Assembly: GCA_964016885.1 (NCBI GenBank)
Contig: OZ024740.1
Coordinates: forward strand, 201,376,001 to 201,440,000
Reading direction: 5' to 3'
Origin: Eledone cirrhosa
Lineage: Eukaryota
DNA length: 64,000 nucleotides
Shown here: piece after piece, positions 21,486 to 40,555 of the stretch
Layout of the letters: each line of letters begins with the position of its first letter
Numbering within the stretch: the first letter of the stretch is position 1
Notes under the pieces: model-generated
The model's database searches: none
What the model was told of the DNA's origin: nothing
Seen by the model: only the letters and a program-made list of their open reading frames with translations
Position numbers and translations under genes: made by a program

Positions 21486-21998
21486 AGTTTTAATATAGAT
21501 GAGATTCTACAGCACTAGAACTGTTTCATTCTTTAGAAATCATCAGGAATCTGGCTTTCCAAAAATAAATGTTGTGGTATTTATATATTTTCAGGTGGTA
21601 GGAGAGGGTGGGGAGTGGGATGGGTAGAGGTCATTGGTTGAAAGAAAGGGGAATTCATTAAAAGCTAAATCTTTAAGGCTGTAATTTATATTTAGAGTGA
21701 CAAAGGCAGAAAGAATTCTATAAACAAGTTCAGAATGGGGTGCCACTCCTTATTTTTAAGTTTCTCTCAGTCTAACAATGCCTATATTTCAGGTGTCTAT
21801 AAGATCGTTGGGGGTCGGTCATGGTTGATGGATTTAAAGAAAAGGGAAATTCTTTAAAAGCTAATTCTTTAAAGTTCTACTTTAAGTGACAAAGGTCTAG
21901 ATAATTCTATAGACCAGTTCAAAATATTGGGTGCCTATCATATCATTATCTTCAAATTTCTCTTAAGCAATATTCCAGGTGTCGACAGACACATTCAC
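21486..21998 (-). repeat. pLTR-like element A (inverted copy of 39980-40490)
   Basis: About 510 bp of near-identical reverse-complement match; contains HHR and an internal duplication. Confidence 0.92.
21502..21552 (-). ncRNA. Type I HHR (inverted copy of 40425-40475)
   Basis: - strand GATTC-CTGATGA-TTTCTAAAGAAT-GAAACAG-TTCTAGTG-CTGTA-GAATC. Confidence 0.85.
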
Positions 21999-22225
21999 AC
22001 ACACACACACACACACACACACACACACACACACACACACCCCACACACACACACACACACACACACACACAAATATATACATATATACATTTATATATA
22101 TATATATATATATATATATATACACACATATACACATATATATATATATATATATATATATATATATGTTGATTAAAAACTGCACTATCCACAAGTGTTT
22201 TTTAACCTTCATATCATGTCTTCCT

Positions 22226-22294
22226 GTTTTATCTGATGAAAACACAAATATTATTGCATGATGATATTTGTTTTTGAAATGCGCATAATAAAAT
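22226..22294 (+). ncRNA. Type I HHR
   Basis: TTTTAT-CTGATGA-AAACACAAATATTAT..ATGATATTTGTTTTT-GAAATGCGCATA-ATAAAA; palindromic stem III ATGCGCAT. Confidence 0.85.
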
Positions 22295-22787
22295 ACATGG
22301 AACTCTTTTAACCATCTTTTGTTCTTATATATTATATATATATATATATATATATATATATATATATATATATATATATATATATATATATATATATATA
22401 TATATATATATATAGTGAAAAATTGAACGGGAACAAAACAGAGAGGCAGTACAAACAAAGGTTTATTAATTTCACGCTCTTGAGAGTGGGGTGGATATAT
22501 GTACATATATATACACATATATATATATACATATACACATACATATACATATATATACATATATACATATATATGTGTATATATATATATATATATATAT
22601 ATATATATATATATATATATATATATAAATATATATATATATATATATATATACATATACATACATACATAGATATATATACATACATAAACATATACAC
22701 ACACATATATATATATATATATAGATAAAATAAAATATTAAACAAATAATGAATAAACAATTTCTTATATTAAACAAAAAGAGTTCA

Positions 22788-22934
22788 TTATTTAACGATC
22801 GTTTCTAGGATATATATGTGTTAGAATTGGTATGCATATTCAACAGATCTATGTACAAAATTATACAAAATTATACAAATTATCAAGATTAAATATACAT
22901 ACCAAACACATATATACGCCGTCTTCAGAAATAA
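22788..22934 (-). ncRNA. HHR with stem II over 100 nt (left arm of palindrome)
   Basis: Reverse complement of 22939-23085. Confidence 0.8.
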
Positions 22935-22938
22935 TGAA

Positions 22939-23085
22939 TTATTTCTGAAGACGGCGTATATATGTGTTTGGTATGTATATTTAATCTTGATAATTTGTAT
23001 AATTTTGTATAATTTTGTACATAGATCTGTTGAATATGCATACCAATTCTAACACATATATATCCTAGAAACGATCGTTAAATAA
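22939..23085 (+). ncRNA. HHR with stem II over 100 nt (right arm of palindrome)
   Basis: TTATTT-CTGAAGA-[TATATATGTGTT..TGGTATG...CATACCA..AACACATATATA]-GAAACGATCGTT-AAATAA. Confidence 0.8.
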
Positions 23086-36739: not shown

Positions 36740-37171
36740 AATTGTAACTGTAGATCAAGTAGAACCTGCCCTTTGGATAAAAAATGCTTAACCAAGGATA
36801 TCATATACTCATGTACAGTCACAACTAACAACTCTTCTGAAACCTATATAGGCTCCACTTCTAACTGCTTCAAAACTAGATACAATTCGCACCTCCACTC
36901 TTTCAAAAAACACAGTCTAGCCAACTCCACTTCACTATCTAGCTACATACACTATCTAAAAACTAAAAATAAAATATATACACTTAAATGGGAAGTGGTA
37001 GGTAGTGCAACATCGTACAAACCACCTAATAAATTTTGTAACCTCTGTCTACTAGAGACCCATACTATCATCTTCTCTAAACATAATCTTCTTAATAAAA
37101 AATCAGAAGTGTTCGCAACTTGCCAACACCGCTTCCGACACTCGTTCCAAAACTTTAAACCCTATATATAA
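36740..37171 (+). CDS. PLE4 GIY-YIG endonuclease domain
   Basis: ORF 36773-37171 with IIY...YIG..R...H and C-terminal CNLC..E. Confidence 0.88.
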   Translation, partial: NCNCRSSRTCPLDKKCLTKDIIYSCTVTTNNSSETYIGSTSNCFKTRYNSHLHSFKKHSLANSTSLSSYIHYLKTKNKIYTLKWEVVGSATSYKPPNKFCNLCLLETHTIIFSKHNLLNKKSEVFATCQHRFRHSFQNFKPYI

Positions 37172-39091
37172 TAATGTCAGACTGGAACCGGCACCACCCC
37201 TAGCAATTAACATCAGTGGCTCACCTTACACCTCACATCCACACCCAATTCTATACTCTAAAGATAATACTGACAGCATTTTAGTACCACCTACCCTGGG
37301 AATACCCCCTTGTACCTCTAATTCTGATATCTCGACCGTGGACTACTTATTCTGCATTGCACAAATATATGATTAGTATAAACTGGGGACACGGTACTGG
37401 TTGCGATAACATAGTCCTGTGCATGGATTCCCACCAAGAGATAGATTGATGATTAGATAGATAATCGTATTGCTATGTGAATATATACTGTAAACGATCA
37501 GTTCAATGAATTATGCACAGGAGATGCATGAGTTAGGAGCCTCTGTGTTGCCTGGTGACCTGACCGGCACCTTTCGACAAGAGAACCGGCCACCGGAACA
37601 CCCTGGTGAACTTACCGGGGATGCAGTCATACTACGACCGGAATCTCCCCGGGAGTCATGTATGATAATAAGACCATTACTGAGAGTGAGATCCATGTAG
37701 TTAATCATGTAGTCTGACTCTTCTTATGGATTGGCCGGGTGTGGCACCCCATGTTGGATTGTAGTCGTCATGATACGAACTCCTTTAGTACTTGTTACTG
37801 GACTCCACTCTAGCTTGTGGATGGGATACCTGATCTATATGGGGGATGTGGGTTTATGTATTGCTTGGTGGCCAGACGGGTGCCCTGGTATGAGAGATTT
37901 AATCTCCAGATTGTAATCATCTTGATGTGAACTCCTTTAGTACCTATTAATAGACTCCACTCTGGCTTGTAGATGTGATACTTAATTGATTTATATATGA
38001 GACGGGGGTTGTCTATTGCATGATGACCAGACTAGTGCCTTTATATGAGAAATTGGATCTCCGGACCATACCGAAGATTTACCGGAGATTCAGACATGCA
38101 TTGACCCGGAGCCTACCGGGTGGCATATATAATAGTGGGACCATACCAGGTCCTACTGTTATATTACATTTGCATGGAACAGTGACTTGTGAGGCTGACT
38201 CCTCTTATAGAATGTTCAGATATGACACCCCTTAATAGATGGTAGTCATCCTAATATATACACCCTTGTACTTCTTAATGGACAACTCTCTAACCTATAA
38301 ATGGGTAGCATACTCTAGAAATTAGTTATAACTTCATATGATAGGCACGTATTTGAATCACCATTAATGTAGTTTAGGATAGTAATTTAACTAAGATAAC
38401 TAGCTAGTTACCTCCCCTTACGCATTAATTCCCCTTAGCCATTCAGACACTTCCGGAATCTGGACAGCATGATCTATTAATTAAGAACCGACTGGATACG
38501 GTTTATAGCTTGATTATATGCTGAACCATCGCGAATTACACGATAGACACGTGTTCTCCATATATATTGCGTCTCTTGGATTATGTGAGTGGTGGTGTGA
38601 GCGAAGACAGTGGTACGGCTTTGCCTACGATACAATAAGGTTTATAGTATGTTGAAAGTTTTTGATATTCTGGTGTTTCCCTGCATCCGAGACTGTATAT
38701 CATACAGATGTATGAGAATATATGACTTAATAATTCAACCCACATAATAAAATCGATTGCCTGCTTCAACTGCCTGACCCTGCAAATATCATTCTGACGC
38801 ACTCTAATCTTGTATAAATAAGACACGCGTGCATGCTACACGTGAGATTGTTTCATACACTGACTACTCTAAGCTTTCCTCTTGCTTTATCTTCATAGAC
38901 TGCCAACGCTTCATGTTTATCTTTATTTTCATTCTTGTTTTTATTTTATTTTTATCCTGTAACCATTATATGTAAATTGCCATGCTATATCATTTGATGA
39001 ATGTCACCTCACTGTTGATCAATATGCGCATATGTTTTATATGTCTCTTGGGTTGAAAAGGAGGTCAAGTATGTTATAGATCAGTAAATAG

Positions 39092-39140
39092 TTGCTCCGA
39101 AGAATCCAAACCTCGGTTTGGAGGAAACAATTGTAAGCAA
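39092..39140 (+). ncRNA. HHR, CCGAAGA core variant, in PLE4 pLTR
   Basis: TTGCT-CCGAAGA-A-TCCAAACC-TC-GGTTTGGA-G-GAAACAATTGTA-AGCAA. Confidence 0.82.
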
Positions 39141-39210
39141 TTAAATGACTTAAACTGAACTTTGATTATTGTAATCTCTATATATATATGTATATGTATG
39201 TATATATATA

Positions 39211-39817
39211 TGTCAGGTCATCACTTGGTGCTGCTGGTAACATGTATTCCAGTACAACCTGTCCCATGGTCGGGTCGTTGGCGACTAAACTGGCAACCCC
39301 ACCAAGGTTTCTTGGTGAGGAGGGTGACTTTGGACATCCTGCAGGACTAAAAACAAAACCTGTCAAAGGGCAAAGGATCTCTTAAGAGTCAATGGCCATC
39401 CAAAATCACCGGGAGAGATGACCCCTTAGCCTTTGTCAAGGCAGAATTCTAGGAGAAGGAAAACTCTGATATAACACCTGCAACCCTGATGGTATCCAAT
39501 GATGTTGACTTGTTCTTCTTTTTGGTAAATATCATCTTGGTTAAGAGAGTGGGACTGGCTTTGTGCAGTGCCTTTGCTCACTATAAAAGCTTCACGGCAC
39601 AGGCATTGCTTTATATCTGGAGATCTCTTTGCACTTGTCGTCACATGGTACCATGGGCCCAGCACTGTGTCAATAATTGTCACAAGTGTAGTGTTTGTAC
39701 CAGAGTTTTCAAGTCGCTGGCTGGACTAAAAAGTCACACTCGTCAGCGCATCGGTAGGCGTTCCCCTACATGGATATAAAGTAGTGGCCGTACTCGAAAA
39801 CGAGTTGGCAGCCACCA
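39211..39817 (+). mobile_element. Non-autonomous RTE-like element B' (LINE 5' part joined to 3' zinc finger and tail)
   Basis: GGAGAAGGAAAACTCTGA 5'-UTR-like motif; [18 protein letters not shown]2H2-like end; 3' hairpin ACTCG-AAAA-CGAGT then (TA)n. Confidence 0.65.
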
Positions 39818-39979
39818 TATATATGTATATATATATATATATATATATATATATATATATATATATAAATATATGTGTGTGTGTGTGTGTGTGTGTGTGT
39901 GTCTCTGTGTGTGTGTGTGTGTGTGTGTGTGTGTGTGTGTGTGTGTGTGTGTGTGTGTGTGTGTGTGTGTGTGTGTGTG

Positions 39980-40555
39980 TGAATGTGTCTGTCGACACCT
40001 GGAATATAGCTTAAGAGAAATTTGAAGATAATGATATGATAGGCACCCAATATTTTGAACCGGTCTATAGAATTATCTAGGCCTTTGTCACTTAAAGTAG
40101 AACTTTAAAGAATTAGCTTTTAAAGAATTTCCCTTTTCTTTAAATCCATCAACCATGACCGACCCCCAACGATCTTATAGACACCTGAAATATAGGCATT
40201 GTTAACCTGAGAGAAACTTAAAAATAAGGAGTGGCTACCCAATCTGAACATGTTTATAGAATTCTTTCTGCCTTTGTCACTCTAAATATAAATTACAGCC
40301 TTAAAGAATTAGCTTTTAATGAATTCCCTTTTCTTTCAACCAATGACCTCTACCCATCCCACTCCCCACCCTCTCCTACCACCTGAAAATATATAAATAC
40401 CACAACATTTATTTTTGGAAAGCCAGATTCCTGATGATTTCTAAAGAATGAAACAGTTCTAGTCCTGTAGAATCTCATCTATATTAAAACGTTTATACTC
40501 TGCTATGTATTGAGTACCTTACTTACTGTGGTTACCTCCGATTCAACCCGGAATA
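39980..40555 (+). repeat. pLTR-like element A'
   Basis: Partner of 21486-21998; HHR at 40425; ends at (TA)n. Confidence 0.92.
40425..40475 (+). ncRNA. Type I HHR
   Basis: AGATTC-CTGATGA-TTTCTAAAGAAT-GAAACAG-TTCTAGTC-CTGTA-GAATCT. Confidence 0.87.

Follow-up and report, generated by a model that had tools for sequence, protein, structure and literature searches.

Penelope-like elements (PLEs) normally leave inverted, 5'-truncated copies with a one-sided tail at (TA)n targets, according to the available excerpts of two reports (PMC8557442, PMC3846280). In vitro, both strands of AT-rich DNA are cut and reverse transcription starts at two sites whose spacing equals the tail (PMC11167929, available in part). 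Two larger arrangements have been described: in Adineta vaga, a nonribosomal peptide synthetase (NRPS) gene lies between Pen3a pseudo-long terminal repeats (pLTRs), with two pLTRs in direct and one in inverted orientation, a target duplication of 8 bp, and an empty allele (accessible portion of PMC3846280), and the Terminons of bdelloid rotifers, which are giant Athena chains, are described in the excerpt of PMC6431247 as telomeric, endonuclease (EN)-deficient and arranged head-to-tail, the ribozyme being followed by reverse-complement telomeric repeats. The defining trait of retrozymes is a series of tandem units that each contain a ribozyme (10.64898/2026.07.22.740005, seen as an excerpt). 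Here we describe a locus in a 64,000-nucleotide window of the Eledone cirrhosa genome (assembly GCA_964016885.1, contig OZ024740.1, positions 201,376,001 to 201,440,000), in which two inverted PLE-type 3' modules, A and A', frame 18 kb of other sequence. The locus has known PLE anatomy, and its notable feature is the unusually large nest between the arms.

A preliminary description of this window had proposed that A mirrors A' and that a second pair, B and B', mirrors itself inside the first in nested order. Self-BLAST bore this out: 21480-22171 paired with 40497-39813 at 93.9% identity, microsatellite included (E = 0), and 25910-26420 paired with 39958-39450 (E 9e-174), both matches being far beyond chance. 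After removal of the microsatellite, A (21487-21984, minus strand, short arm) and A' (39993-40490, plus strand, long arm) differed at 12 of 498 positions with no indels (2.4%, 95% confidence interval (CI) 1.3-4.2%), and B (26054-26420, minus strand) and B' (39450-39814, plus strand) at 8 of 364 positions with three indels (2.2%, CI 1.0-4.3%). A and A' had no other partner within the window, no open reading frame (ORF) in the window list adjoins either of them, and A contains a degenerate internal duplication of ~195 bp (72%).

The 3' ends of A and A' are inverted, face outward and frame the unit, with (TA)n as the target. The left edge of A lies 1 bp from a (TA)32 microsatellite (21422-21485) and is thus flush, and A' runs 62 bp further to its (TA)n, which belongs to a (TA)n(TG)n(TATG)n right target (40554-40658). 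This one-sided tail of ~63 bp (62-64; 40491-40553, plus strand) is absent from A. On the inner side, both modules pass into (GT)n and then (AT)n, seen as an (AC)n(AT)n microsatellite in the left arm (21985-22169) that mirrors the (AT)n(TG)n of the right arm (39817-39992). Both outer ends lie within microsatellite, where a target-site duplication is not scorable. A diverged A-family relative (11790-11942, minus strand) provides an internal control for the insertion geometry. It consists of two arms, one tailed and one flush, on either side of a 3-bp centre and is 86.7% identical to A' over 105 bp including the ~63-bp extension, which is conserved at 11794-11850; by the same measure its tail is 66 nt compared with 64 nt in A', and its flush arm stops at the same point as A. 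The A family therefore inserts as such pairs. One flush and one extended arm were found in 10 of the 11 inverted pairs tabulated, the remaining pair (30693-31969) not being scorable.

The one-sided extensions in the window cluster at 37 bp (one), ~62-67 bp (five) and ~128-132 bp (two), with coordinates 3045-3081, 11788-11850, 24186-24251, 26923-26988, 30124-30189, 40491-40553, 23144-23275, and 26714-26841. Set against the 30-40 bp published for PLE tails, these length classes may reflect a family-specific spacing of the two reverse transcription start sites.

The reading that we favour, with moderate confidence, is that one inverted-type PLE insertion produced A and A' as its two arms and that the 18 kb between them arrived later, piece by piece. 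Judging from known PLE biology, a PLE endonuclease would first have cut a (TA)n run. With the 3' end of an A-family RNA as template, cDNA synthesis would then have been primed by both target strands from two start sites separated by ~63 nt, yielding a flush arm and a tailed arm facing outward; this geometry is visible at the locus, and the enzymology is presumed. Both cDNAs may next have passed the (GT)n of the RNA, halted in its self-complementary (AT)n and been joined there. The central (AT)n would finally have served as a new target into which ~16 PLE fragments, palindromes, and B copies inserted serially, every insertion adding more (TA)n; the module boundaries can be seen directly, and the order of events is conjectural. 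EN+ PLE insertions, of which the Neptune, Hydra, and Naiad types target (TA)n, share with this locus the outward inverted 3' ends, the tail on one arm, a type I hammerhead core (putative here) near the end, the (TA)n target, and the lack of a discernible target-site duplication (PMC8557442, PMC3846280, as far as the excerpts go). Unlike in these insertions, no ORF of A's own family lies between the arms, which are 18 kb apart rather than adjacent. The locus resembles the Adineta vaga NRPS case in that unrelated sequence is framed by PLE terminal repeats, but here there is no direct pLTR and no scorable duplication, and the interior consists of other mobile elements.

A and A' could instead be two independent insertions of a dispersed family into one (TA)n hotspot, in which case no 19-kb unit would exist. 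Consistent with this, a third family member 10 kb away shows that the A family is dispersed, the nest extends beyond A (a hammerhead fragment lies outside it at 21148-21421), several PLE fragments are solitary (22170, 35840-39180), and ~2% divergence is the age of most things in the window. Yet independent insertion would require that the outward orientation, the flush and tailed ends, the shared 5' stop in (GT)n(AT)n, and the partnerless state of both copies all arose by chance. The third member is only 81-87% identical, compared with 97.6% between A and A', and a stretch free of short interspersed elements (SINEs) at 20695-42437 brackets A-A' tightly. We regard this alternative as unlikely.

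A descriptor scan detected a type I hammerhead core with three stems in A (21508-21546, minus strand, predicted cut after 21508, without Rfam support) and in A' (40431, plus strand, predicted cut after 40469). With the strict descriptor, the window gave four matches and 10 shuffles gave none. The cores in both arms lie 38 and 21-84 nt from the outward-facing ends. Together with the flush and tailed geometry of inverted PLE insertion, this supports the earlier view of A as a PLE-type end bearing a hammerhead, which is putative. A is also similar to non-LTR retrozymes in being short and without a recognisable ORF, and in having a putative type I core and the degenerate internal repeat. Its classification as a tandem retrozyme was ruled out, as each arm has one core, the ~195-bp internal repeat has none, and no tandem array is present. 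Elsewhere in the interval, CCGAAGA replaces CUGANGA in the hammerhead-like folds at 39097, 31882, and 30780, in three related ends. These folds have strong stems and a palindromic stem III, and the variant is common to copies that are only ~76% identical.

The 18-kb interior consists of ~16 modules, most of them bounded by (TA)n-type runs, including eight inverted pairs, three B copies, solitary hammerhead fragments, a 2.5-kb segment, and one PLE. Hammerhead cores, ORF remnants, and B copies are found on both strands across it. As previously described, B' and A' are separated by a short microsatellite (176 bp by our measurement), whereas the A-B gap of ~4.07 kb holds five non-microsatellite islands that start at about 22172, 22418, 22725, 24161, and 25416; the proposal that the left-arm microsatellite grew by serial insertion is supported. 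Island 1 (22170-22325, plus strand) is a separate hammerhead-bearing 3' fragment opposite in orientation to A, with its core at 22233. Island 2 (22415-22494) is an 80-bp piece between microsatellites, island 3 (22730-23270) comprises a palindrome (22730-23143, 0 of 206 positions different) and a one-sided extension of ~130 bp, island 4 (24186-24559) joins a 65-bp one-sided extension to an inverted pair (3/131), and island 5 spans 25413-25600.

Beyond B, the region 26596-28285 holds three inverted pairs (26596-26713, 26989-27416, 27460-27713), each extended on one side, together with a hammerhead-like core at 27911 (plus strand). It is followed by a 5'-truncated PLE endonuclease fragment (29041-30190, minus strand) framed by inverted 3' ends (29052-29195 and 29980-30123), whose GIY-YIG-type motif was read by eye without a Pfam match. 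A 1.28-kb palindrome (30693-31969) has a CCGAAGA-type hammerhead core in each arm (30780, minus; 31882, plus), and next to it is an inverted pair (5/223) around a 623-bp spacer (31970-33041). The 2.5-kb segment (33042-35580, minus strand) contains a GDSL/SGNH-like coding remnant at 33855-34211 (E 0.0024, under the cut-off), whose nearest atlas clusters are eukaryotic proteins (0.96); none of 104 candidates was a longer relative of this piece. The segment also contains a direct repeat of 47 bp (33040/33723) as well as short repeats between 34695 and 34780. To its right, a self-contained 5'-truncated PLE (35840-39180, plus strand) has a broken ORF ending in GIY-YIG, a long 3' region, its own hammerhead core (39097), and its own (TA)n end upstream of B'. 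A search with the PLE endonuclease found two proteins at 36%. Seventeen raw reads join 37189 to 38807 via 23 other letters, implying that the 1.6-kb part 37190-38806 is absent from some members of this PLE family; the same part is itself repeated in the mapped runs.

Terminons resemble this locus in their large size, in the 3'-end hammerhead (putative here), and in the GDSL-like and GIY-YIG remnants inside. The modules here are, in contrast, apparently interstitial, of mixed orientation, and end in (TA)n. Head-to-tail unit order was not found, both strands being used in the interior, and no reverse-complement telomeric repeats follow the hammerhead, as A and A' run into (TA)n. The interior PLE ORF remnant ends in GIY-YIG. 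Since the units are not head-to-tail and the ribozyme is not followed by a telomeric repeat, the locus is not a Terminon, and for the Terminon-like cargo suggested by the preliminary description no defining feature was found. The interior fits serial nesting rather than a Terminon-like chain. It is nonetheless conceivable that the whole 18-kb interior was carried between A and A' in one step, as a chain of Terminon scale. The interior is free of SINEs and of similar age, and the GDSL-like remnant and GIY-YIG pieces represent functions listed for Terminons in the accessible part of PMC6431247; we keep a small probability for cargo because of the GDSL-like remnant. But the modules run in both directions with separate (TA)n ends, the hammerhead lacks a telomeric repeat after it, and summed read depth differs more than 1000-fold among modules over 36950-39816. 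Cargo should also predate the arms, which the pooled interior arms do not, one pair being younger, and arms of up to 575 bp would make long hairpins in the template. One-step transport of the entire interior is in our judgement extremely improbable. A broader version, in which the non-autonomous hammerhead module A enabled an EN-bearing PLE to copy a long read-through RNA and several kb, up to the full 18 kb, moved together in one interstitial event, is very doubtful too, if marginally less so. If true, other elements and a piece of a GDSL-like gene would have been moved along, which would be Terminon-scale transduction away from telomeres.

The relative ages of arms and interior were compared by divergence. 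Seven interior pairs pooled gave 30 differences in 1545 positions (1.9%) compared with 12 in 498 (2.4%) for A/A' (P = 0.59), with a 27-bp pair left out and the 29-kb pair counted as 4/144 (6/152 by local alignment). One interior pair had no differences in 206 positions (P = 0.007 at A's rate). The interior modules are therefore not detectably older than A/A'. One common SINE type, which we take to resemble the common octopus SINE, occurs 21 times in the window, at 14 sites. None of the 14 sites lies between A and A' (P = 0.015 for these boundaries and 0.08 for the largest gap anywhere), and the SINE-free stretch closely brackets A-A'. The block between the arms is young and of one period. If an octopus calibration of 0.09 divergence for 25 million years, given in an excerpt of PMC13282606, is applied, the 1.2% per arm would correspond to ~3 million years.

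B' in full (39213-39816, plus strand) is a ~600-bp copy of a very abundant non-autonomous element. It extends ~237 bp further 5' (39213-39449) than B, a 5'-truncated copy that lacks this part and ends in a CX2C-X12-HX4H zinc-finger remnant (C2H2, Pfam E 0.0012, under the cut-off) and an (AT)n tail. A third B-family 3' end, B3 (35581-35614, plus strand), has 34 bp identical to B' at 34 of 34 positions and agrees with B', not B, at the two sites that it covers. Like non-autonomous RTE-derived short elements, B has a ~600-bp unit, a simple-repeat tail, 5' truncation, and a terminal C2H2 remnant. We presume from its resemblance that B is RTE-like, and the zinc-finger remnant is compatible with this.

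A search for sequencing runs listed 24, with no long-read and no RNA run among them. Reads of four sequencing runs were mapped to 36950-39816; run X22 was restriction-site biased, and of the runs with small shares (0.07-0.13; 15 rows) only X6 was mapped. In run X1, summed depth was 0.97-1.31 million over 39254-39816, compared with 17,000 for the PLE endonuclease and between 346 and 4,505 across 37238-38389. Summed depth is not a copy number, and we used it only to grade B as a coherent family that is far more abundant than the neighbouring PLE. Contigs of high depth (490-826) from two other organisms differed from B' by one letter and three gap letters over 39448-39757, and by two letters and three gap letters over 39643-39801. 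The private sites of B' are 39629, 39764, and insertions after 39665 and 39742, along with 39759, taken from a loose-end consensus, and B carries the family letter at all five. Raw reads of organism A agree with the family letter, for example at 39629 in 5,980 of 6,017 plus-mate reads, and at 39742 in 33,630 of 37,306. Differences found in B only are at 39553, 39715, 39766, 39775, 39786, and 39788. B' is separated from the family contigs by three substitutions and two indels, and B by five substitutions and one indel. The derived changes common to B and B' number zero in 352 bp (39450-39801), so each copy is nearer to the family than to the other.

We conclude from these sequence comparisons that B, B', and B3 are probably three independent insertions of one abundant short element and that B/B' was not copied together with A. 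Among three B copies within the interval, two are likely to be opposed, and any such interior pair automatically stands in mirror order; the nested mirror position of B/B' is thus most likely a coincidence. High-depth B-family contigs are within ~1-2% of B' in X4 and X6, which carry different organism labels, whereas the PLE next to it differs by ~15% in X4. This contrast suggests that the B family either is very young or has been shared horizontally. Metagenome, viral, and prokaryote collections were scanned for patterns of A and B and returned no loci, which is uninformative for a eukaryote.

The preliminary description had held that one PLE event made an inverted copy of a composite end containing both B and A. 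The inverted geometry of A/A' agrees with such an event, but B does not appear to belong to the copied unit. Under the composite explanation, two copies were made of an RNA end with the order B-(AT)n(GT)n-A, B being short cargo, and the left microsatellite grew later. B' and A' share their orientation and are only 176 bp apart, the 5' truncation of B is what an inverted arm would show, and PLE repeats reportedly mobilise unrelated sequence in trans (PMC3846280, in the part available), so that the short-cargo version would be only a variant of a known process. A/A' and B/B' are also equally diverged (Fisher P = 1.0). We rejected this equality as support for co-duplication, as most inverted pairs in the window are ~2% diverged and the block is of one period, which makes it non-diagnostic. 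B3 matches B' rather than B, an opposed pair is expected among three abundant AT-tailed copies, and five islands lie between B and A. Under co-duplication, zero shared changes would have a probability of 0.17 had B accumulated 0.5% divergence in the donor, 0.03 at 1%, and 0.001 at 2%; co-duplication is thus possible only if B was still new at the moment of copying. The same description had named, as an outcome that would speak against it, copies lying nearer to other genomic copies than to each other, and for B and B' the family consensus is indeed closer. We consider the composite explanation decidedly unlikely.

Misassembly, through fold-back reads or two haplotypes joined in inverted order, was also considered. 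In its favour, palindromes and microsatellite abound in the region, the arm differences are rich in transversions, and neither a long read nor a spanning contig was seen. Against this, the arms differ by 12 substitutions and no indels, and the asymmetric ends repeat those of the diverged relative, which fold-back artefacts would not do. The flanks outside A/A' and inside B/B' are unrelated by self-BLAST, unlike those of a duplicated haplotype, and haplotype duplication was rejected for this reason. An assembly artefact appears highly improbable.

Several observations weigh against a single PLE insertion followed by serial nesting. A-family copies were compared within the window, which leaves room for independent insertion of A and A', and neither an empty site nor a spanning read was seen. 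Eighteen kilobases and ~16 insertions within ~1% divergence per copy would be a fast pile-up, the 63-bp tail of A' is longer than the 30-40 bp published for PLEs, and the left side of segment 33042-35580 has no (TA)n boundary. For the hammerhead, an Rfam search with A' alone gave two chance matches and no hammerhead, a U-U occupies the position where stem II should close, and the predicted fold of the isolated RNA region is not the hammerhead (z = -0.55). Given the lack of Rfam recognition and the non-hammerhead fold, we grade the A/A' core as a minimal candidate motif. On the side of B, the variant evidence comprises 40 of the 387 rows, and the family consensus is that of contigs from organisms B and C rather than the full table for organism A. 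Finally, the arm differences over 10 pairs comprise 24 transitions and 30 transversions, compared with 155:100 in the family contigs (P = 0.017), and arm divergence may therefore be an imperfect clock; errors of reverse transcription, repair, or base-calling are candidates for the transversion excess.

The window as a whole is eukaryotic, with a GC content of ~35% and 91 tandem-repeat rows, among which (TA)n, (CA)n, and (TATG)n are frequent. A profile search found several Penelope-like ORF remnants, including a reverse transcriptase (RT) domain match at 5366-6595 (E 2e-10) and GIY-YIG matches just under the cut-off at 3693-4250 and 36485-37168 (E 4.7e-4 for the latter). The former two belong to a near-complete PLE at 3045-7052 with a C-terminal GIY-YIG, inverted 585-bp arms (10/581 differences), a 37-bp tail, and (CA)n within its 3' region. 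It is a textbook case and serves as a model for the internal (GT)n of A. A second decayed PLE-like RT was read by eye at 7871-9467, without a Pfam RT match. Two SINE copies (15088-15275 and 16340-16528), inverted, 97% identical, and ~1 kb apart, flank a (TGT)n array. A piece of a LINE-like ORF with a PHD finger (E 8e-7) lies at 51951-52868, and an acidic open frame at 62961-63392 may be a host exon. Rfam gave 202 matches over the window, and the 150 listed were of microsatellites or hairpins to miRNA-type models, all under the gathering score.

In a literature search that was thin on subscription journals, we found no description of a PLE pair split by a comparably large nest. The locus opens no new class of element, and only the low-probability cargo reading would surprise a specialist. 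It also carries a warning: in a microsatellite-rich genome, inverted repeats that lie far apart and are equally diverged can be unrelated copies that date from one burst. If A and A' are indeed the arms of one insertion, the AT-rich centre of a PLE inverted pair would have acted as a landing pad and grown to 18 kb while its copies diverged by only ~1%, and the locus would illustrate known biology well and offer a datable series of insertions. The feedback by which each insertion leaves more (TA)n target could then help explain local transposon hotspots.

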